In this document: one piece after another, positions 4,268-14,570 of the stretch
Numbering within the stretch: the stretch's first letter is position 1
How the letters are laid out: every line of letters starts with the position of its first letter
Origin: Candidatus Saccharimonadota bacterium
GTDB lineage: Bacteria; Patescibacteriota; Saccharimonadia; Saccharimonadales; JAQGGX01
DNA length: 31,811 nt
Assembly: GCA_028289075.1 (NCBI GenBank)
Contig: JAQGGX010000058.1
Coordinates: 1-31,811, forward strand
Direction: 5' to 3'
Translations under genes and position numbers: made by a program
The notes under the pieces: model-generated
Database searches by the model: none
The model's input: only the letters and a program-made list of their open reading frames with translations
What the model was told of the DNA's origin: nothing

Positions 4268-5191
4268 TTACAGCCAGCGTTTGCGACGGAAAACTAGGAC
4301 CGTACTCGCACAGGCGAGCACAATAAATGCTATAACAAACCAGAAGGCATACGGATGTTCCTGCAATGGTAGTGGTACATTCATACCGAAGATTCCCGAT
4401 ACAATTGTCGGAATCATCAAAAAGATAGAGATCGAGGTCAGGCGACGAAAGGTCTTGTTCAGTTCGTTGGTCGCAATCGCATCATATGCCTGGCGGATGT
4501 TTACGATTGTTTTGACACGTGACTTCGCAAGCTCAATCAACTCTGCAGTACCAAGGCTTAAGTCCTCGATGAGATCTTTGTCCTGCTCATACAAGCGGAT
4601 AAATTTGCCGTTTAGCAAGTTACGAAGCATTGAAGCCTGTGGTTGCAGGGCGCTCAGCATTTCATTCAGGTCATCTTCCAGATCTACAAACTGCAGCAAC
4701 TGTTCATTGCTGATGTTTTTGCCGCGCAGCTGTGTACGAGCACGAAGCACTTGCCGGGTCGTTACGTTCAGGTAGCGAGTATACGTCTCATTCACTTCTT
4801 CAATGATTTGCAGTAATGTCTTTGTCTTTTGCGTAGTGATAACCGGGCGCTGACCGTTTTGCAAGCGCTTCAGTATATTTGTCTGAGCCCGCACAATCGT
4901 AATCAAGCAATCGTCACGATATATGATCAACAATGGTTCAGTGGCGTTTACGCCATTTTCGGGATAACAGTATCTTGTAAACACATACACCGTGTCATCC
5001 TCTTGCTCGATACGAGGCGCCTCATACGGGTCGACGGCGTCATTCAACAGGTCGATATCGAGGTTAAAATCCTCACTTAACCGCTGCAGTTCTTCTGCGT
5101 TGGGTGCTTCGACATGGATCCATGCTCCAGTACGCAGGCTCTCAATAGTCTTCAGCTCCGGCGCACGTGCCGTGCTGTAATAAATATTCAT
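4268..5191 (-). CDS. corA: CorA family Mg2+/Co2+ transporter
   Basis: 307 aa; signature GIFGMNV after the first of two C-terminal TM helices; WIHVEAP near the N-terminus. Confidence 0.95.
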   Translation of the reverse strand: MNIYYSTARAPELKTIESLRTGAWIHVEAPNAEELQRLSEDFNLDIDLLNDAVDPYEAPRIEQEDDTVYVFTRYCYPENGVNATEPLLIIYRDDCLITIVRAQTNILKRLQNGQRPVITTQKTKTLLQIIEEVNETYTRYLNVTTRQVLRARTQLRGKNISNEQLLQFVDLEDDLNEMLSALQPQASMLRNLLNGKFIRLYEQDKDLIEDLSLGTAELIELAKSRVKTIVNIRQAYDAIATNELNKTFRRLTSISIFLMIPTIVSGIFGMNVPLPLQEHPYAFWFVIAFIVLACASTVLVFRRKRWL

Positions 5192-6502: not shown

Positions 6503-7123
6503 TTATACTTTGTTATCCAGCCATGGCCGCTGAGCAATTATGAGCGCTCTGGAGGAGATAATCTCCTTCTGCACAGCACCGTTGACAATATATTGATTTG
6601 GCTTGTATTGCTCTTTATATTTAAGTACCTTCCAGCCCGCTTGAGTGTATATGTCGCTCAATTCGCCCGGATGGAAGCAGCGGGCAGTGTTCTTTACATT
6701 TGCCATACCCGGCTGAACCAAGTAGCCTCCGATGATGTTCAGCCCACCCTGACGCGTTACATTTCTTAATGCATCCAAAGCTATAAATGCATGAGTTTTA
6801 GGCATGAGATGCAAGACATCATCTGACAACACAATATCAAATGCCCTCGCAAACGGTGGGCGGCGAATATCTCCGGCTATGTAGGTATTTTTTCCTGCCA
6901 GCTCTCCAGCGCGAGTATTATTTCGCCTTGCAGCGTCTAATTCATCTATGTCGTTACTCAGGTTCACGACATTATGACCAAGTTGAGCCAGGTGTAAGCC
7001 ATGCCTACCGGTACCGCATCCAGCATCCAGAATATCTCGTGGAGTTTCCGTATCGAGCGAAGCAGCAAACTCACGAATATAATCGGCTGGTGGTAGTCCA
7101 AGAGGTAATTCAACTTGTGTCAT
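6503..7123 (-). CDS. Class I SAM-dependent methyltransferase (TehB-like)
   Basis: Motif I ILDAGCGTGRHG; FDIVLS; GGLNII. Confidence 0.9.
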   Translation of the reverse strand: MTQVELPLGLPPADYIREFAASLDTETPRDILDAGCGTGRHGLHLAQLGHNVVNLSNDIDELDAARRNNTRAGELAGKNTYIAGDIRRPPFARAFDIVLSDDVLHLMPKTHAFIALDALRNVTRQGGLNIIGGYLVQPGMANVKNTARCFHPGELSDIYTQAGWKVLKYKEQYKPNQYIVNGAVQKEIISSRALIIAQRPWLDNKV

Positions 7124-7246
7124 AGGTTCTCAAACAATATTTCTATATGAAAAAAGGCATCAAATGCCATATGTAGGTATATTATAGCATATACGTCAAT
7201 ATTAGTCAATATATACCATTTCATGCTGGAGTATTATGGATATTTT

Positions 7247-7255
7247 TGGTACAAT
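7247..7255 (+). promoter_or_regulatory. Extended -10 promoter element, probably driving the tRNA-Gln locus
   Basis: TG-G-TACAAT matches TGnTATAAT, about 40 nt upstream of the first tRNA-like copy. Confidence 0.5.
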
Positions 7256-7294
7256 CTCCCCTGTTTTATAGCGTGCACACAGTACGCATAATAA

Positions 7295-7359
7295 TGGGGA
7301 TTGGCCAAGCCGCACCGACACCGGATTCGGTCCTGCCATTCGAGGGTTCGAATCCCTCA
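7295..7359 (+). pseudogene. Degenerate tRNA-Gln copy lacking the 3' acceptor strand
   Basis: First 15 nt (TGGGGATTGGCCAAG) identical to the intact tRNA; anticodon loop TTC-GGT has a 1-nt deletion; intact T-arm GAGGG-TTCGAAT-CCCTC; no ATCCCCAGCCA end. Confidence 0.8.
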
Positions 7360-7375
7360 AACAAATTAACAATAT

Positions 7376-7398
7376 GATTCAGAATATTTCTCTTGGCT
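7376..7398 (-). repeat. Inverted copy (anti-repeat) of the tRNA 3'-end/trailer repeat
   Basis: GATTCAGAATATTTCTCTTGGCT; its reverse complement matches 7472-7494 (AGCCAAGAGAAATGTCCTGAATC) at 21/23. Confidence 0.9.
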
Positions 7399-7402
7399 TT
7401 AG

Positions 7403-7476
7403 TGGGGATTGGCCAAGTGGTAAGGCACCGGGTTCTGGTCCCGATATCGGGGGTTCGAATCCCTCATCCCCAGCCA
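7403..7476 (+). tRNA. tRNA-Gln (anticodon CUG)
   Basis: 74-nt cloverleaf: acceptor TGGGGAT/ATCCCCA, D-arm GCC-AAGTGGTAA-GGC, anticodon loop TT-CTG-GT, T-arm GGGGG-TTCGAAT-CCCTC, G discriminator, encoded CCA. Confidence 0.96.
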
Positions 7477-7508
7477 AGAGAAATGTCCTGAATCCCGGCG
7501 TCCCCAGC
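7469..7508 (+). repeat. Direct repeat R1 (40 bp; tRNA 3' end plus trailer)
   Basis: CCCAGCCAAGAGAAATGTCCTGAATCCCGGCGTCCCCAGC, identical to 8567-8606. Confidence 0.97.
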
Positions 7509-7555
7509 TAAATCAAAACCCGGTCGAAAAATCGGATTTACTGTTATCCCCATTT

Positions 7556-8503
7556 TTATTGGATACGTAAATCTGCGACGAGTCTGGCATATTGCGTAAA
7601 AGCTGGTTTTGGCAGGTACTCGTCATCCATGATGCCGAAATGATAGAATATGCCCTCCTTGTCACTGTCGGTATCGCGGAGTTGAAAGAGCTCATAATGC
7701 GTAATATTGTAAGTGTCTTTAACTTCATACACGCTCATGATGATACGCTCGAGCGTAACCGCTTGTTGTTCTAGCGGGCGCTGGTCACCGGTCGGCCAGC
7801 CGTTTTCGGTAATTCGGATTGGCACGTGACCGCCGATACCCGCTCCTGCCAGATCACGCTCGCGAAGATCATTGATAATGGACTGAACTGCAGGTGCAAT
7901 TTGCTCTGTCGGAATTGGCCGGAATACGTCCGGGAAGAAGTCGAATCCAACATAATCTAACGCTTTGAGGAATTCTGGCGTGGAAAGCTCGCTAAGCTTT
8001 TGCCAATAAGTGTCTGGACCAAATGTTGGCGTAACATTGAAGCCAACTGCAACCTTACCCCAGCCGGCAGCTTGCAGTGCTGTTTTGGCTGCTATAACGC
8101 CTTCGGTGAGTGCACGCATGGACGAGGGATAGTCACCGTCCATACCATGGCCAACCACATTAGTTTCTTCGGTAATTTGTAGTGCACCGAGATGTGCACC
8201 GTATTCGTCTACGACTTTTTCTATAAAACGCTGCCAGTCTTCCATGTCGCCGGTATCAGTTTGGTAACATATGACCAGGTCAAGTTTGCGACCATGTATC
8301 GCATACTGTTCTGGACGAAACGGTGTGTGGTTGGCGGATTTACTATTGCCCTTATAGTGCAGGTAAGCTCGTGCCAACAGTGTCGCCGCGTCACCCTGCA
8401 GTGTGTCGAGTGCGCTATTAATTGCACTTGGATTATCGGGCTTGCCTTGCAGTAGCCCTTCATCTGAACCAGTTGCGCTGCCTACGTATATGCCAAATTC
8501 CAT
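7556..8503 (-). CDS. Putative clan GH-A-like TIM-barrel glycoside hydrolase
   Basis: 315 aa; ITENGWPT resembles a nucleophile motif, LQITEETN a possible acid/base region, DYVGFDFFP; AGGAGG SD upstream. Confidence 0.6.
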   Translation of the reverse strand: MEFGIYVGSATGSDEGLLQGKPDNPSAINSALDTLQGDAATLLARAYLHYKGNSKSANHTPFRPEQYAIHGRKLDLVICYQTDTGDMEDWQRFIEKVVDEYGAHLGALQITEETNVVGHGMDGDYPSSMRALTEGVIAAKTALQAAGWGKVAVGFNVTPTFGPDTYWQKLSELSTPEFLKALDYVGFDFFPDVFRPIPTEQIAPAVQSIINDLRERDLAGAGIGGHVPIRITENGWPTGDQRPLEQQAVTLERIIMSVYEVKDTYNITHYELFQLRDTDSDKEGIFYHFGIMDDEYLPKPAFTQYARLVADLRIQ

Positions 8504-8566
8504 ACATCCTCCTATGCCTTACTCCTATCGCTATTGTACTCACAAGTTTGGAATATGGGCTACTTA

Positions 8567-8606
8567 CCCAGCCAAGAGAAATGTCCTGAATCCCGGCGTC
8601 CCCAGC
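8567..8606 (+). repeat. Direct repeat R2 (40 bp)
   Basis: Identical to 7469-7508. Confidence 0.97.
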
Positions 8607-8610
8607 CACG

Positions 8611-8645
8611 AAAAGAGCATCCTGCCAAAGGTAGGGTGCTTTTTT
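8611..8645. terminator. Bidirectional terminator-like hairpin at the left end of unit 2
   Basis: AAAAGAGCATCCTGCC-AAA-GGTAGGGTGCTTTTTT, 13 nt beyond the stop of 8659..9525. Confidence 0.75.
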
Positions 8646-8658
8646 AGTTAGCTATGCA

Positions 8659-9525
8659 TTACTTCATGAACTCAGCTATGCATTCCCACAGTTTTTCTGG
8701 CTGCTCATCAGCAATAAAATGACCACTGCCCTCGATTTTCTTACCTTCAATATTTACTAGGCCAGCCCTAGTGAAGCCTGCAATATAAGGCTCAATGCTC
8801 ACCCCACTATGACTACCCCTGAGGTAAAGAACAGGAGTCTGAATAGACTGACTTGGGGCGGGCGTATTATCTTTTTTGTCTTGCGTAAAGGCACGGTACC
8901 ATTCAAAACCGGTACTGAGCGCGCTAGGCTGTGTGTATGCTTTGGCATATCGTTCACGTGATTCTGTTGTTATCAATTCAGGTTTGAGCGACATAGCGTC
9001 GAAGAAGAAATCGAAGTAATCCGCTTGTTTACCCTGTACTAATTTCTCTGGTAACTCCGGAATAGTATGAAATGCAAAGTGCCAAATATGGGGATTGCGC
9101 AACACTTCATCCCACGGGTCAATTCCAGGCACCGCGACATCTATGATAATGGCTCGTTCCAAATAATCACCGTGATTAGTAAGATATGAATAGGTAACCA
9201 TACCGCCGCAATCATGACCAACAAGGGTCACATGCTGGAGGTCCAGCGCCTGGACAACGCCGTATACATATGCAGCAATTTCCTTTTTGCTCCCAACAAG
9301 CGGCTCACAACTAGACGCGCCCATCCCTGGCATGTCTACGGACACTGCATGCACCGTCTGACCCGCGAGGATCATAACTTTTTCAAAGGCCGACCAGTCT
9401 TGTGGCCAGCCATGCAAAAAGAGTACTACAGGGTCGTTAAGCATCCCACACTCGACGACGTGAATACGCGCATCCTTGACCTCTATATATCTGTGCCGTA
9501 GTTCATGGGTACTTTGAAGTTCCAT
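8659..9525 (-). CDS. Alpha/beta hydrolase, epoxide hydrolase/haloacetate dehalogenase-like
   Basis: HGWP oxyanion motif, GHDCGG nucleophile elbow (Asp), WHFAFH, GFEWYRA, C-terminal GHF. Confidence 0.92.
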   Translation of the reverse strand: MELQSTHELRHRYIEVKDARIHVVECGMLNDPVVLFLHGWPQDWSAFEKVMILAGQTVHAVSVDMPGMGASSCEPLVGSKKEIAAYVYGVVQALDLQHVTLVGHDCGGMVTYSYLTNHGDYLERAIIIDVAVPGIDPWDEVLRNPHIWHFAFHTIPELPEKLVQGKQADYFDFFFDAMSLKPELITTESRERYAKAYTQPSALSTGFEWYRAFTQDKKDNTPAPSQSIQTPVLYLRGSHSGVSIEPYIAGFTRAGLVNIEGKKIEGSGHFIADEQPEKLWECIAEFMK

Positions 9526-9625
9526 ATCTTTTACTATACCCCCTTTCTCATCCTAATAGGTAGAGCACTATGCCCCCTCCTATCATGCCCATCACCATCG
9601 TTCAAAGCTTGGAACGTTGACTACC

Positions 9626-9649
9626 TCCCCAGCCAAGAGAAATGTCCTG
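9626..9649 (+). repeat. Direct repeat R3 (24 bp, shortened)
   Basis: TCCCCAGCCAAGAGAAATGTCCTG, identical to 7467-7490. Confidence 0.93.
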
Positions 9650-9748
9650 GCTCGCTACCCTACCGCCTCTGCAGGAGGCGGACGTACAGGAGAGCTGCTT
9701 CGCAATCTCGACACTGAGCTTCGTTCTTCCGCTGAAAGTGCGGCTTAA

Positions 9749-9937
9749 CATTCGGCTTTATCAAGCAACGCTTACTTCAATACACAGCGCACCAATGGCC
9801 CCCTCACCGCTCCCAGTACCAGTGCGTCTAGCGGTAACGGTGTCTACACCTACAGTGCGGACGCTATTTTCCCCACCAGCACTTACCAGGCAACCAACTA
9901 CTGGGTTGATCCTATATTTAACCTGACGACTCCTTGA
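9749..9937 (+). pseudogene. C-terminal remnant of a DUF4082-like domain protein
   Basis: Hand translation HSALSSNAYFNTQRTNGPLTAPSTSASSGNGVYTYSADAIFPTSTYQATNYWVDPIFNLTTP*; no start codon, in-frame TAA at 9746-9748. The GPL..GNGVY..FPT..NYWVD pattern is recognised as DUF4082. Confidence 0.75.
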
Positions 9938-9947
9938 AGTCAGATCC

Positions 9948-10709
9948 CTATTTTTTCTTGAACCTCTTTTTGATTATTCCCCACACGAAATGGGCATTGC
10001 CTCGAGCCATGAATTCTTTTTTGTTGCTGCCGATCGACTCTATCAGCCGTGAGGCTGTGAATTCGGCACTATCTGGGTCGGGCAAGAAATCTTGCCTTTG
10101 AGCTTTGGCTTCCATCTCGCGTGGATCCATCTTGAAGACATTCTTTCCAAACTGAGATGACGTGATGAATGGATAAAACGCGCTTACCTCGATATTGTCT
10201 TTGGCAAGTTCTTTGCGCATCACGAGTGTCATATGCGTAAGAGCTATCTTTGTCAGGGAGTAGGCGCCTAGGCCGGGTAAAGCCATCTTGGCTGTCGGTG
10301 TACTGACGTTCACGATCCTTCCGCCGCTCTGGGCGCGCATGATCGGTAGTACCGCTTGCACCGCGACCAGCGGGCCGACGACATGCAGGTCGAACAGGTA
10401 GCGTACTTTGTCTGCTTCTACGAGCTCGAGCGGGCTTTCATAACCCTTGCCGGCGTTATTTATGAGTATGTCGATACGGCCAAAGTGTTCGTGCACTTTC
10501 TTTACCATTGCTTGTACGGACGCGTCATCCGTCATATCGGTTGGGATTGCCACACTTCTCTCAATGCTATCTGCAACCTCGTCGAGCGTGTCGCTCCCTG
10601 GCGCGGCGATTGCCACCAACGCACCTTGTGCCGCTAGCTGTCTAGCCGCTGCGAGTCCGATACCGGATGATCCTCCGGTTATTATCACGACCTTTTCTTT
10701 AAAATTCAT
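9948..10709 (-). CDS. SDR family NAD(P)-dependent oxidoreductase
   Basis: TGGSSGIG, NNAG and catalytic YSLTK. Confidence 0.95.
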   Translation of the reverse strand: MNFKEKVVIITGGSSGIGLAAARQLAAQGALVAIAAPGSDTLDEVADSIERSVAIPTDMTDDASVQAMVKKVHEHFGRIDILINNAGKGYESPLELVEADKVRYLFDLHVVGPLVAVQAVLPIMRAQSGGRIVNVSTPTAKMALPGLGAYSLTKIALTHMTLVMRKELAKDNIEVSAFYPFITSSQFGKNVFKMDPREMEAKAQRQDFLPDPDSAEFTASRLIESIGSNKKEFMARGNAHFVWGIIKKRFKKK

Positions 10710-10757
10710 ATTGTTGCCCCTTCTTGCACGTAATGCATAACAGTGATACTCTAAATT

Positions 10758-10773
10758 TAGAACAATTGTTCTA
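10758..10773. promoter_or_regulatory. Probable TetR operator
   Basis: Perfect 16-bp palindrome TAGAACAATTGTTCTA between divergent SDR and TetR genes; TATAAT at 10785-10790. Confidence 0.75.
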
Positions 10774-10796
10774 GAACAGTCAAGTATAATTTATAT

Positions 10797-11420
10797 ATGT
10801 CCGATCACTATTTACGCACCACCCCAGTTCATAAGCGCAGTCAGGCGACAATTCAGAAAATCCTGAATACCGCTGAAGCTGCTTTTTTGGAGTTGGGTTA
10901 TGACAAAGTTACGACGCGAATCATTGCCGAAAGAGCTGGCGTGCCTACGGGTTCCCTGTATCATTTTTTCCCAAACAAAAATGCCATCCTGGATGGCCTC
11001 GCAGCTCGACACCTAGAAGCCCAAAAGGACATGCACCAAGATTTACAATCTGTTTCACCGACCACAGACCTAGAGGTGTTCATAGACCTACTAGTCGACA
11101 AGATATTGATCCATTTTGAATCACACGCACCGTTTGAGCGAATTATCAATGCACGTTCGTCTTCGTCGGAAATAGCAGAGTACGTGAAGCGTTTTAACGA
11201 GGAAGCGCTAAACAATACTATTCGGAATATGGCTGCCGCCTACCCTTCCGTATCTCCTGACGTTCTCAAAGTGCAGGCTGAAACAACTGTGGCGCTCGTG
11301 AGGAGTTTGCTAGATGTCTCTACCCGCCAATCTGACGCTGCTACTCGTGCAAAAGTCATAGAAAACATGAAGGTTGCCCTGCATGCAATATGGGAGCCAC
11401 TTATAAAGACGCTGCGATAA
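10797..11420 (+). CDS. TetR/AcrR family transcriptional regulator
   Basis: N-terminal HTH GYDKVTTRIIAERAGVPTGSLYHFFPNK. Confidence 0.95.
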   Translation: MSDHYLRTTPVHKRSQATIQKILNTAEAAFLELGYDKVTTRIIAERAGVPTGSLYHFFPNKNAILDGLAARHLEAQKDMHQDLQSVSPTTDLEVFIDLLVDKILIHFESHAPFERIINARSSSSEIAEYVKRFNEEALNNTIRNMAAAYPSVSPDVLKVQAETTVALVRSLLDVSTRQSDAATRAKVIENMKVALHAIWEPLIKTLR

Positions 11421-11446
11421 GGCTCACCGACGGTAGTCATTGTAAG

Positions 11447-11686
11447 ATGAAAAAGAAAATAATTTTCCTTGCTGGAGGTACATTTATTTACATCGTGCTC
11501 CTGTCTGTAGGTACTACGCCGCCTGCGTTTAACCGAACAACAAACTCCGGCACGGAAAATATGGGTCTAACCGGCGCCAACATCCGCTGGGGTACACTTG
11601 CCGCAGGCCAAACGGCGTTACCAGCGAGCTTTATGTCCGCGAACATCGTCTCTACGAGCAACTTGTTTATCGTTTGTGGTATGTAG
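11447..11686 (+). CDS. Small protein with N-terminal hydrophobic segment (79 aa)
   Basis: Within track ORF 11390..11686; start reassigned to ATG 11447 (MKKKIIFLAGG...); followed by a terminator-like hairpin. Confidence 0.45.
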   Translation: MKKKIIFLAGGTFIYIVLLSVGTTPPAFNRTTNSGTENMGLTGANIRWGTLAAGQTALPASFMSANIVSTSNLFIVCGM

Positions 11687-11707
11687 GGCTAAGATCTAGA
11701 GTTTATC

Positions 11708-11730
11708 ACTAACCTCTGGGTTAGTTTTAT
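11708..11730 (+). terminator. Terminator-like hairpin
   Basis: ACTAACC-TCTG-GGTTAGT followed by TTTATT. Confidence 0.55.
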
Positions 11731-11877
11731 TGTTGATCCCATGGATGTATGTCGCCTAGTGTGGTGCGAGACATATAGACTTTTATGGCTTGATTGTAGC
11801 AGAAGCGGTTACAGGGCATTTTCAGGGGCGCAAAACCCTTTTAACTGTGGTAGGCTATTATCCGTATCACCCTACGT

Positions 11878-12035
11878 TGGGGAATGGCAACTGGTAAGTC
11901 ACCGGGTTCTAGTCCCAGGATCAGGGTGAGACATGCCCGGGGCATGTCGCAAGGCGACTTTCCGATGCAAGCTATGCTTACAATCGTGAAATCGCGGGGC
12001 TGCCGGAGGTAGGTCGAATCCCTCATCCCCAGCCA
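11878..12035 (+). pseudogene. Interrupted tRNA-Gln-derived copy with CUA anticodon and ~86-nt insert in the T-arm
   Basis: 5' half TGGGGAATGGCAACTGGTAAGTCACCGGGTTCTAGTCCCAGGATCAGGGT (11878-11927) aligns to the intact tRNA; 3' half TCGAATCCCTCATCCCCAGCCA (12014-12035) is identical to 7455-7476. Confidence 0.82.
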
Positions 12036-12036
12036 A
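12014..12036 (+). repeat. att-like direct repeat of the tRNA 3' end (23 bp)
   Basis: TCGAATCCCTCATCCCCAGCCAA, identical to 7455-7477; identity begins in the T-loop. Confidence 0.95.
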
Positions 12037-12063
12037 TTCGATTTTCAACTAATCGGTTCGAAC

Positions 12064-12087
12064 GAAAGACTTCCGAAGAAGTCTTTC
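12064..12087. terminator. Terminator-like hairpin after the interrupted tRNA copy
   Basis: GAAAGACTTC-CGAA-GAAGTCTTTC, perfect 10-bp stem. Confidence 0.7.
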
Positions 12088-12166
12088 ACATTTTGCAATA
12101 GTTGTTACAAAATCTCTAAGCTCACTTCCTGAAAATTTCTAAACATATCCACTAGCCCTAACCATG

Positions 12167-12202
12167 GAAAAACCTCTAGATCTTCTGATTTAGAGGTTTT
12201 TC
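12167..12202. terminator. Bidirectional terminator-like hairpin
   Basis: GAAAAACCTCTAGATC-TTCT-GATTTAGAGGTTTTTC, 16-bp stem with one G-U pair. Confidence 0.65.
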
Positions 12203-12293
12203 TCTGTGTTGTGGGGGGTGTATTGATTTTCATAAATGTAGCATATATACTACGTAATATAGTACTTATAGTACACTGGAAGGAGGGCGACTA

Positions 12294-13196
12294 GTGGTAA
12301 GAAAACCAAACAATTTTACTATCGAAGTAAAAAATCTAGGGATGCAATACGGAGATAATCAGGTATTAAAAGACGTAAACTTTCATGCCAGGCAAGGCGA
12401 GGTGCTCGTATTGCTTGGCCCTAACGGGGCAGGTAAAACTACTACCATCGAAATTCTGGAAGGCTTTCGCAAAGCATCGACCGGATCGGTGGCCGTACTG
12501 GACATAAACCCGGAAAAAGGAGATGAGGCATGGCGGGCACGACTTGGCGTCGTTCTTCAGTCTTGGCGCGACCATTCTAAGTGGTATGTTCGCGAGTTAT
12601 TGCAGCATATTGGGAAATACTATGTGCCATACTCTACCGAGAGTCATAAACGCCCCTATGATACAGATGAAATACTCCACATCGTAGGGCTAGCTGAGCA
12701 TGCGCACAAGAAGTTGGGTGAGTTATCTGGTGGACAGCGGCGTCGTATGGATGTTGCAATCGGACTAATCGGTAATCCTGAAGTGCTATTTCTTGATGAG
12801 CCTACTGTTGGCTTTGACCCTATCGCACGCCAGGAGTTTCATGATGTTATCCATCGTCTCTCCGATCTAGAGAAAACGACAGTTCTATTAACAACACATG
12901 ACTTGCAAGAAGCAGAAAAACTTGCTGACAGAATCATCATATTGGCAGGCGGCAAAATAATTGCGAATGGTACCGCCGGAGAACTGGCGCAAGAAATTGA
13001 AGGCCGGACTGAAGTGCGTTGGCAGCAGAACGGAGAATTAATGGTCCATTCGACAAAAGATGCCACAGCGTTTACACGAGATTTGTTACGTCAACACGAA
13101 TCTGGTATTTCTGATCTGCAGATACACGGCACGACATTAGAGGAAACATACACGGGACTTATCCAGAAGTACGAAGAGAAAAAGGAGGCAAAATAA
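12294..13196 (+). CDS. ABC-2 type exporter ATP-binding protein
   Basis: Walker A GPNGAGKT, signature LSGGQRRR, Walker B LFLDEPT, H-loop TTHD; GTG start after AAGGAGG. Confidence 0.95.
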   Translation: MVRKPNNFTIEVKNLGMQYGDNQVLKDVNFHARQGEVLVLLGPNGAGKTTTIEILEGFRKASTGSVAVLDINPEKGDEAWRARLGVVLQSWRDHSKWYVRELLQHIGKYYVPYSTESHKRPYDTDEILHIVGLAEHAHKKLGELSGGQRRRMDVAIGLIGNPEVLFLDEPTVGFDPIARQEFHDVIHRLSDLEKTTVLLTTHDLQEAEKLADRIIILAGGKIIANGTAGELAQEIEGRTEVRWQQNGELMVHSTKDATAFTRDLLRQHESGISDLQIHGTTLEETYTGLIQKYEEKKEAK

Positions 13197-14041
13197 TGAA
13201 TGTTTCTTCAAATGCAGTAAAGCTTGGATTCGAACGTGGCTGGATTGATTTTAAGCGGTTCGTATCGAGTCCAGGGGATATCATACCGATTTTACTCATT
13301 GCTGCCCTATCACTTGGTTTCCTCTGGTATCAACGTGACTATCAGGTGAATGGTATCTCATTAGCTTTGGTGACACTGCCCAGTATTATCGGTATGATTG
13401 TTGCCTTTAGTGGATTTTCTACTATTTCGAGTCTGCTCACGTCCGAACAAGAAGATGGGACGCTCCTTCGAGCCAAAACAATCCCACAGGGTATTAAAGG
13501 TTACTTTATCTCTCGGCTTGTATTCGTCGCCCTAACAACAAGTATCATGTTGATAGGTATGTTGCCCGCTCTGTTCTTCGTGGACGGTGTCTCCATTGAC
13601 TTTAGTCAAGGTGTTGAGCTTGCTGGAGTACTCATTTTGGGCTTCATCGCAACGGTAACGTGGGGCGCTATTGTAGGATCACTGGTTAAAAGTGCAAAAG
13701 ATGCCAGCGCCCTTATGTTTCCTACTTTTCTCATTATAGGTATATCTGGCATTTTCTATCCTATTACTGCACTCTGGGGATGGGTGCAGGCTGTCGCGCA
13801 AATATTCCCAGTTTATTGGCTTGGCCTGGGGGCACGATCTATTATTCTTCCTGGCCAGGCAGCAGCTAACGAGATAGCTAAATCGTGGCGGACGCCAGAA
13901 ATGCTCGCTATACTTGCGATATGGGCAATTGTAGGCTTAGCCGTTGCTCCGAAGGTGCTTTCGCGGATGACTCGACGTGCCACAGGCTCTAAAATGACTG
14001 TAGATAGTGAACATGCAAAACAATACCAACCACATCAATAA
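13196..14041 (+). CDS. ABC-2 type exporter permease
   Basis: About six TM segments; EQEDGTLLR motif; SGIFYPIT; TAATG overlap with the ATPase gene. Confidence 0.92.
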   Translation: MNVSSNAVKLGFERGWIDFKRFVSSPGDIIPILLIAALSLGFLWYQRDYQVNGISLALVTLPSIIGMIVAFSGFSTISSLLTSEQEDGTLLRAKTIPQGIKGYFISRLVFVALTTSIMLIGMLPALFFVDGVSIDFSQGVELAGVLILGFIATVTWGAIVGSLVKSAKDASALMFPTFLIIGISGIFYPITALWGWVQAVAQIFPVYWLGLGARSIILPGQAAANEIAKSWRTPEMLAILAIWAIVGLAVAPKVLSRMTRRATGSKMTVDSEHAKQYQPHQ

Positions 14042-14261
14042 AAAGGACGCAGGCGGTGAAGCTGTTTATAACAGAATCAACGTTCTACGTGCTGAACGAA
14101 AGATCACTCGCAGGCAGCTTGCTGACGCACTTGGTATACACTATCAGACGGTAGGGTATCTAGAGCGTGGAGAATTCAACCCCAGCCTTCAGCTCGCACT
14201 TCGTATTGCCGAATATTTTGACGTGCCGGTTGAACGCGTATTTTCAAACGAACCTTTTTAA
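14013..14261 (+). CDS. Xre/Cro-like HTH transcriptional regulator
   Basis: NRINVLRAERKITRRQLADALGIHYQTVGYLERGEFNPSLQLALRIA; start 14013 (ATG) or 14007 (GTG). Confidence 0.92.
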   Translation: MQNNTNHINKKDAGGEAVYNRINVLRAERKITRRQLADALGIHYQTVGYLERGEFNPSLQLALRIAEYFDVPVERVFSNEPF

Positions 14262-14350
14262 AAGCTGAGATCCTTCCTTAATACAGTCAGCTTTTCACAC
14301 ACAGTCATCAGGCTAAGTGCTTAATAGTGTTCCGATTCTGGCCTGCGTGG

Positions 14351-14384
14351 CCAGCCATTACGAATTTCAACTAATCAGTTCGAA
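14351..14384 (+). repeat. Degenerate direct repeat of 12029-12062 (34 bp)
   Basis: CCAGCCATTACGAATTTCAACTAATCAGTTCGAA vs CCAGCCAATTCGATTTTCAACTAATCGGTTCGAA, 30/34 identical. Confidence 0.88.
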
Positions 14385-14462
14385 TATATAGCGCCGCTGT
14401 AGTGAGCGGTACGTTCACACCTGAATTTCCTGGCTGTAAGGGCGAGTGGTTCACGGAATGAG

Positions 14463-14570
14463 CTATGATTTACCGGCTCTTAATTTTTTCTTGCGAGCCT
14501 TTTCGTATACCGCGCGCTTAGCAGTTATTTTTTCTAATTTATCCTGCTTTTTTCTGTCTCGCTTTTTCAT
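14463..14570 (-). CDS. Small Lys/Arg-rich peptide (35 aa)
   Basis: Hand translation MKKRDRKKQDKLEKITAKRAVYEKARKKKLRAGKS*; ATGA overlap with the upstream gene. Confidence 0.6.
   Translation of the reverse strand: MKKRDRKKQDKLEKITAKRAVYEKARKKKLRAGKS

Follow-up and report, generated by a model that had tools for sequence, protein, structure and literature searches.

The locus at 11878-12035 of the window (the whole stretch of DNA that was analysed, 31,811 nt) is almost certainly a member of a family of core elements that is hosted in a pseudo-tRNA and not a suppressor tRNA. The element, rather than the tRNA, is the conserved part of this locus. The features listed here are all located on the + strand:

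7403-7476 (+): intact working tRNA-Gln(CTG), identified by ARAGORN and by the Rfam tRNA model (59.8 bits)
11878-11926 (+): decayed copy of tRNA-Gln, positions 1-53, with the anticodon CTA at 11909-11911, from the alignment to the genome's own tRNA-Gln
11923-11926 (+): T-stem 5' strand, which pairs with 12020-12023 and closes the junction (helix 1 of the consensus fold)
11927-12013 (+): core element, a three-helix junction in place of T54/T55 of the T-loop, from the covariance model R1
11927-11951 (+): helix P1, in which U-A and G-C pairs close the 8-bp hairpin at 11930-11948, from the consensus fold and pair counts
11954-11995 (+): helix P2, a long interrupted hairpin with the base GCGA/TCGC, from the consensus fold and pair counts
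11997-12015 (+): helix P3, a hairpin that continues into the T-loop remainder and has two conserved G.U wobbles, from pair counts (helix 4)
12014-12035 (+): T-loop remainder, T-stem 3' strand, acceptor 3' strand, discriminator and CCA, identical to tRNA-Gln
12064-12087 (+): perfect 10-bp hairpin 3' of the unit, from inspection of the sequence

The sequence reads as the initial annotation described it, a tRNA-Gln look-alike with a CTA anticodon and an insert of about 86 nt in the T-loop. Its 5' half can be aligned to the intact tRNA as claimed: 11878-11926 is identical to the genome's own tRNA-Gln(CTG) at 41 of 49 positions in a global alignment (88% with E = 8e-7 by BLAST within the genome, 82% in an ungapped repeat comparison), and the best relative's tRNA-Gln matches at 42 of 49. 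At 11909-11911 the copy features CTA and the intact gene CTG. The insert is 85-86 nt long (11927/8-12012/3) and is located where T54/T55 would be expected. The 3' half had been called the same as the intact tRNA, and 12014-12036 is indeed identical to 7455-7477 at 23 of 23 positions (family D7 of the repeat comparison). The tail of about 22 nt is also identical in the tRNA-Gln(CUG) genes of at least seven genomes of the order; since all compared tRNA-Gln(CUG) genes share it, the tail identity gives no age for the copy. A sequencing error in the anticodon had been considered. CTA is genuine sequence and not an assembly slip: a 6167-nt contig from the probable source run matches 8577-14500 with 0 differences, and a 154-nt contig from a second sample matches 11928-12081 with 0 differences. 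ARAGORN and Rfam call the intact tRNA-Gln as the sole tRNA in the window.

The consensus fold was determined with RNAalifold on an alignment of 18 copies from 17 genomes (A3). It features a three-way junction of P1, P2 and P3 that is closed by the T-stem of the host tRNA, and it sets the junctions of the insert at the T-stem/P1 and P3/T-loop borders. Paired cells make up 97.4% in this alignment as compared with 83.4% in shuffles, and none of 500 shuffles reached the observed value; when the partners are slid, the paired cells drop to 27-48%. Covariation among homologues of the insert, the absence of which had been raised as evidence against the initial annotation, is strong, with compensatory (double) changes in 20 of the 39 pairs. 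Helix P1 is 98.9% paired with compensatory changes in 4 of 10 pairs, and the 8-bp hairpin reported at 11930-11948 is exact. Helix P2 consists of 18 pairs, 12 of which show compensatory changes, and is 98.1% paired. The base of P2 in the family is formed by GCGA (11954-11957) pairing with TCGC (11992-11995); the overlapping hairpin noticed earlier at 11946-11958 is present in this copy, however, it is not the conserved pairing of the family. In P3, 14 of 18 copies have G.U at columns 85/93, and so do 14 of 14 paralogs of a complete relative genome, G067, at the equivalent pair. The window copy retains 38 of the 39 pairs, the single broken pair being a C.A mismatch in P2. A 15-codon ORF across P2-P3 (ATG at 11965 to TAG), which has a few synonymous differences from a second copy on contig C42, was rejected as a candidate, and base pairing explains those positions. 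Downstream of the unit, the hairpin at 12064-12087 is an exact 10 bp as reported, however, the run after it consists of only four T, and the terminator scan gave no call.

The same fold is found among copies within one genome. The 14 paralogous cores of G067 are 95.6% paired with double changes in 26 of 39 pairs, in an alignment that was fitted to the model, which favours structure, and their closing T-stem helix varies with the identity of the host tRNA. Compensatory changes are thus shown to preserve the fold both between genomes and between paralogs of a single genome. The fold suits the tRNA-sense strand better than the opposite strand: 97.4% of cells are paired on the + strand and 91.0% on the - strand, with 50 G.U cells. 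Covariation is evidence of pairing and cannot by itself separate an RNA from a folded single-stranded DNA.

The search for further copies of the insert, as the initial annotation had proposed, revealed a large family in one order of ultra-small (CPR) bacteria. BLAST against the genome's own assembly (921 kb, 82% complete) located the copy on C42, which is 78-80% identical and whose differences in the hairpins are compensatory. Used as a DNA query, the locus has matches in 51 of 61 genomes of the order. The covariance model R1, which was built from the core alignment and holds both the window copy and the C42 copy in its seed, gives more than 530 matches. They are distributed over 86 of 151 genomes of the order and number up to 18 per genome of 0.6-1.0 Mb (18 cores in G120, 16 in G067). 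Across a sample of the phylum R1 matched in G000 and G057 alone, both of the same order, and it gave 0 matches among about 144 genomes from other orders. The window copy is matched over its full length at 11920-12028 with 116.6 bits and E = 1.7e-23, among the six best of the more than 530 matches, a score that is partly by construction in a seed member; the other seed copy of this genome, on C42, reaches 108 bits, and hundreds of matches outside the seed score 90-123 bits. This match and the location at T54/T55 agree with the earlier suggestion that a small element sits in the T-loop. The accompanying suggestion of a single accident followed by drift does not hold, as the insert is the best-conserved part of the locus and belongs to an order-wide, multi-copy family with strong covariation. 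Many core matches in relatives are located 30-300 nt from a contig end, and short-read assemblies probably break at the units owing to the adjoining inverted copy of the tRNA tail. Additionally, in a run from the same soil (X1), a contig of another organism leaves the window at 7452 and passes from the tRNA-Gln 5' part into a core (TGAAAAATGCC...), which indicates that sense-type Gln units are present in further members of the community.

Without exception, the core of the relatives takes the place of T54/T55 in a partial tRNA copy, and an intact gene for the same tRNA lies beside this copy. The order T-stem 5' strand, core and T-loop remainder, with a tail from the nearby tRNA, is found in the window and in at least 40 units of relatives. 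The commoner layout starts with the intact tRNA, followed by a hairpin that includes its CCA and by a degenerate antisense copy of the 3' part of the tRNA, and it ends with tRNA positions ~47-53, the core, tRNA positions 55-76 and a terminator. In this layout 20-22 of 24 letters of the tail are identical to the tRNA, and the core begins 62-80 nt behind it. The rarer layout (n = 4) consists of sense tRNA positions 1-53, the core, the T-loop remainder, TATAAT, about 30 nt and the intact tRNA. At L071, L075, L023 and L078 TATAAT directly follows the T-loop remainder and precedes the intact tRNA by 25-40 nt, and the promoter of the working gene may come from such an upstream unit. The broken tRNA copies at L071 and L023 have another kind of insert, a GC-rich hairpin, in their anticodon or D region. 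Nested or tandem cores inside other cores always enter after CGGG, just before P3 (L019, L023, L080, L084). In some genomes of 0.6-1 Mb, units occupy up to about one third of the tRNA loci. The window unit represents a third form, in which the core is carried by a tRNA copy of full length. Its intact tRNA-Gln is located 4.4 kb upstream with gene cassettes in between, and not 62-80 nt or about 30 nt away as in the relatives.

The best explanation is probably an order-specific family of structured RNA modules of about 90 nt that are located inside spare, non-functional tRNA copies. On balance the core appears to be maintained as an RNA, in a transcript that runs in the tRNA direction, is closed by the T-stem and ends in the tRNA tail, with the layouts produced via recombination in the flanks. 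According to this RNA-module explanation the module would be transcribed in the direction of the tRNA, and the tRNA-derived tail would serve as a handle for 3'-end processing, as was proposed for the tRNA-linked repeats of E. coli. Reconstruction from the layouts suggests that recombination within the flanks that are identical to the tRNA may both create units and rearrange them. The arrangement tRNA, hairpin and unit would result from a crossover on the right side of the core, and unit, TATAAT and tRNA from one on its left side; such flank recombination would always leave one working tRNA. The window unit would be the full-length form in this scheme, and both in the window and on C42 single-gene cassettes could have used the same flanks for docking. 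Two small soil metatranscriptomes from the same study (about 120 Mb per run, in which the organism is rare) gave no cover of 11836-12079, which is weak evidence; in both, cover was confined to the tRNA-Gln region and came from reads of many organisms. No RNA runs are listed as containing the stretch, and no sigma-70-like promoter was found upstream of the unit.

The tRNA-linked repeats (TLRs) of E. coli (Egan and Landy 1978, Rudd 1999) are described in PMC8144298 as gene-less units in tRNA or rRNA operons. According to the same paper they end in 18-19 nt that are also the 3' end of the preceding gene, and a part in processing is proposed for this shared end. Compared by description, the units of the relatives are similar in that they follow a tRNA at 62-80 nt and end in its last 20-23 nt. 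The window unit shares 23 nt with its tRNA, however, that tRNA is 4.4 kb away, whereas in the relatives it is directly upstream. In contrast to TLRs, the units described here hold a covarying three-helix core exactly at T54/T55, copy the variable loop and the T-stem 5' strand, often with an antisense tRNA tail, and reach 18 copies per genome of 0.6 Mb. The units' 5' regions contain GGAYTCGAA-like motifs, which led to the consideration of tmRNA. This candidate was rejected, as an ordinary tmRNA is located on contig C27 (72.9 bits) and the unit is unmatched; an antisense copy of the T-arm accounts better for the motif. Rfam, with group I/II introns and small ribozymes included, gave no match beyond chance for the insert over 7100-12300 or in the C42 copy, either at the gathering threshold or at E up to 10.

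A further reading is offered tentatively. The units could represent an undescribed class of bacterial small RNA, or an RNA-dependent self-propagating element, at the T-loop position of spare tRNA modules. Such a class might borrow the tRNA tail for processing and spread without a known transposase, integrase or reverse transcriptase, and the truncated units might be derivatives of a primary insertion form that is represented by the full-length tRNA-Gln copy of the window.

A serious rival, although a rather unlikely one, is that the core is a selfish, protein-less, MITE-like DNA insertion that an enzyme moves in trans into T-loops and CGGG sites, with hairpins that are single-stranded DNA recognition structures and an RNA without a role. 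Several properties of the family are in line with this: its boundaries are discrete, with TGAGA/TGAAA as the left and helix P3 as the right one, cores are nested in cores after CGGG, the copy number is high, many copies are found at contig ends, and the insertions are always in spare gene copies, which makes them costless to the host. Bacterial MITEs (Correia, ERIC and similar) fold when transcribed, and like them the cores are small, protein-less, multi-copy and strongly folded. The cores lack, however, the usual terminal inverted repeats and target-site duplication of MITEs, and they differ in their strict tRNA T-loop context and in a fold that is kept by compensatory change in old copies. 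Copies within one genome are old, being 70-80% identical, yet they are 96% paired with compensatory changes, which would be unexpected for dead transposons. The conserved G.U wobbles and the strand asymmetry also favour an RNA over selfish DNA. A mover is not apparent in the two copy-rich genomes G120 and G067, each of which has one tyrosine recombinase, of a kind that is also present in core-free genomes, and lacks Y1 transposase, TnpB and IS110. The presence of reverse transcriptase and serine recombinase is not consistently related to the cores, and none of the known transposase families tracks the core family. The candidates omega-RNA/TnpB, IS200/IS605, IS110 bridge RNA and retroelements were rejected, all being absent from G067 and G120.

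The region between the tRNA-Gln and the unit contains sets of genes, each of which ends in a copy of the last letters of the tRNA. The 3' end of tRNA-Gln recurs at 8567, 9628, 12014 and 14351 and brackets small gene sets, and the cassette genes identified with Pfam include an alpha/beta hydrolase, a short-chain dehydrogenase and a TetR regulator, among others. For two ORFs of the cassette region, 7556-8503 (-, 315 aa) and 11390-11686 (+, 98 aa), Pfam gave no match up to E = 0.1. Within 7446-9667 the tRNA-Gln 3' end and its trailer appear again at 8567-8606 (40 of 40 identical) and at 9628-9667, the right ends before these repeats are related to one another, and there is a single gene per interval; this region looks like an integrase-less cassette array on a tRNA end. 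Directly upstream of the intact tRNA-Gln, at 7283-7360, is a second partial copy without a core. It matches exactly over its first 15 nt, has a degenerate middle part, retains the whole T-arm and lacks the acceptor 3' strand, and it resembles the upstream unit layout minus the core. A further tRNA-Gln relic at 14300-14384 features an anticodon-arm-like stretch joined to GCCAGCCA, contains a 30/34 copy of the trailer at 12029-12062 and closes an ABC-2/Xre gene set. A comparable arrangement is found on C42 (L002 793-1614, G000), in the order tRNA-Lys(CTT), terminator, NUDIX gene, 11-nt copy of the tRNA end, hairpin and core unit. There the unit ends in the tRNA-Lys tail and the NUDIX gene is bounded by copies of the tRNA-Lys 3' end. 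Both units of the genome are thus located at the far end of small gene-cassette insertions that are anchored on a tRNA 3' end. Synteny with relatives amounts to one real shared neighbour gene (ORF 4268-5191, shared with G004), which is too little for dating the unit.

This arrangement bears on the proposal, which is improbable, that an integrase-borne island at tRNA-Gln left the unit as its right-hand attachment scar (attR), with an insert of meaningless island DNA. The recurring tRNA 3' ends that bracket gene sets are typical of islands at tRNA genes, and the T-loop is the attB of known phages, for example Ms6 (PMC1762012). The likeness to T-loop-targeting integrative elements with attL and attR consists of a direct repeat from the T-loop to CCA, the retention of an intact tRNA and, both in the window and on C42, cargo genes flanked by the repeats. 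In contrast to a simple att scar, the repeat takes in the whole 5' half of the tRNA and the core splits the T-arm, interrupting the repeated tRNA segment. Units here are as small as about 180 bp, and in dozens of genomes the core follows a tRNA at 62-80 nt with a hairpin alone in between. No integrase is located beside the units: a Pfam search found no tyrosine or serine integrase among the ORFs between 5219 and 14261, and the one tyrosine recombinase of the assembly is on another contig.

The tRNA part of the locus is a dead pseudogene, in agreement with the initial annotation, which had considered this the more likely reading and a suppressor function unlikely. Several sites that do not vary among seven tRNA-Gln(CUG) genes of the order are changed in the copy alone: T7>A, which breaks the 7-66 pair of the acceptor stem, G36>A and a G>A in the T-stem. 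Its D stem has lost one C and has a G>T in the 3' strand, both at otherwise invariant positions, and in its T-loop, where about 86 nt replace T54/T55, one T is missing afterwards. ARAGORN was run with and without the insert, as had been proposed, and at default settings it called no tRNA either way, including after removal of the insert with six junction choices. At a relaxed threshold and with the insert deleted it returned a cloverleaf with the anticodon cta, whose D stem is weak and whose acceptor and anticodon stems contain an A.A and a C.A mismatch, respectively. Genes of the host end in TAG, as had been noticed, and TAG stops 147 of 403 ORFs of at least 250 codons (36%). The tRNA splicing endonuclease EndA (PF01974) has no match in the 82%-complete assembly, while archaeal controls were matched. 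Among the four other sense-type units, three keep the anticodon of the neighbouring tRNA and the anticodon loop of the fourth is broken by another insertion, so that none has an amber anticodon; this argues against a selected amber anticodon. Because of the private changes, the lack of a default ARAGORN call, the TAG stops, the lack of EndA and the lack of other amber copies, CTA is read as one of several neutral changes by drift in a pseudo-tRNA.

Glutamine amber suppressors of the supE type arise by a change from CUG to CUA. An expressed amber-suppressor tRNA-Gln(CUA), with the T-loop insert spliced as an intron or tolerated, is nevertheless extremely improbable, since the lone G36>A change, the relaxed cloverleaf and the intact acceptor 3' strand and CCA are set against the private changes, the broken acceptor pair and D stem, the T-loop short of one T, the missing default call, the use of TAG as a stop, the absence of an EndA-type endonuclease and of amber anticodons in other units, and an insert without a match to the Rfam intron or ribozyme families. 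If true, this reading would have meant stop-codon recoding in a CPR bacterium, and it fails.

Introns in archaeal tRNAs are located in the sole working gene copy and are excised at a bulge-helix-bulge (BHB) by EndA. The mobile introns at non-canonical positions in Thermoproteales, which Sugahara in 2008 and Fujishima in 2010 are said to have described, reportedly are short related inserts in many tRNA genes, including in the T-arm. The cores resemble these introns as short, related inserts at many tRNA genes with T-arm positions included, however, the host here is bacterial, no EndA was found, and the inserts are in spare broken copies with an intact copy beside them. The organism is a bacterium, with a bacterial RNase P RNA and an ordinary tmRNA in its genome. 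An archaeal origin or a BHB intron was rejected on these two RNAs and on the lack of EndA.

The core family is very abundant, strongly structured and apparently unpublished, as no published description was found in the literature. For annotation it matters that both tRNA finders and assemblers stumble at such loci. The position of both units of the genome at cassette ends links the family to the gain of accessory genes in reduced genomes. Genomes of 0.6-1 Mb otherwise shed nearly everything that is non-essential, and because it is retained in them the element probably has some role, in tRNA processing, regulation or genome plasticity.
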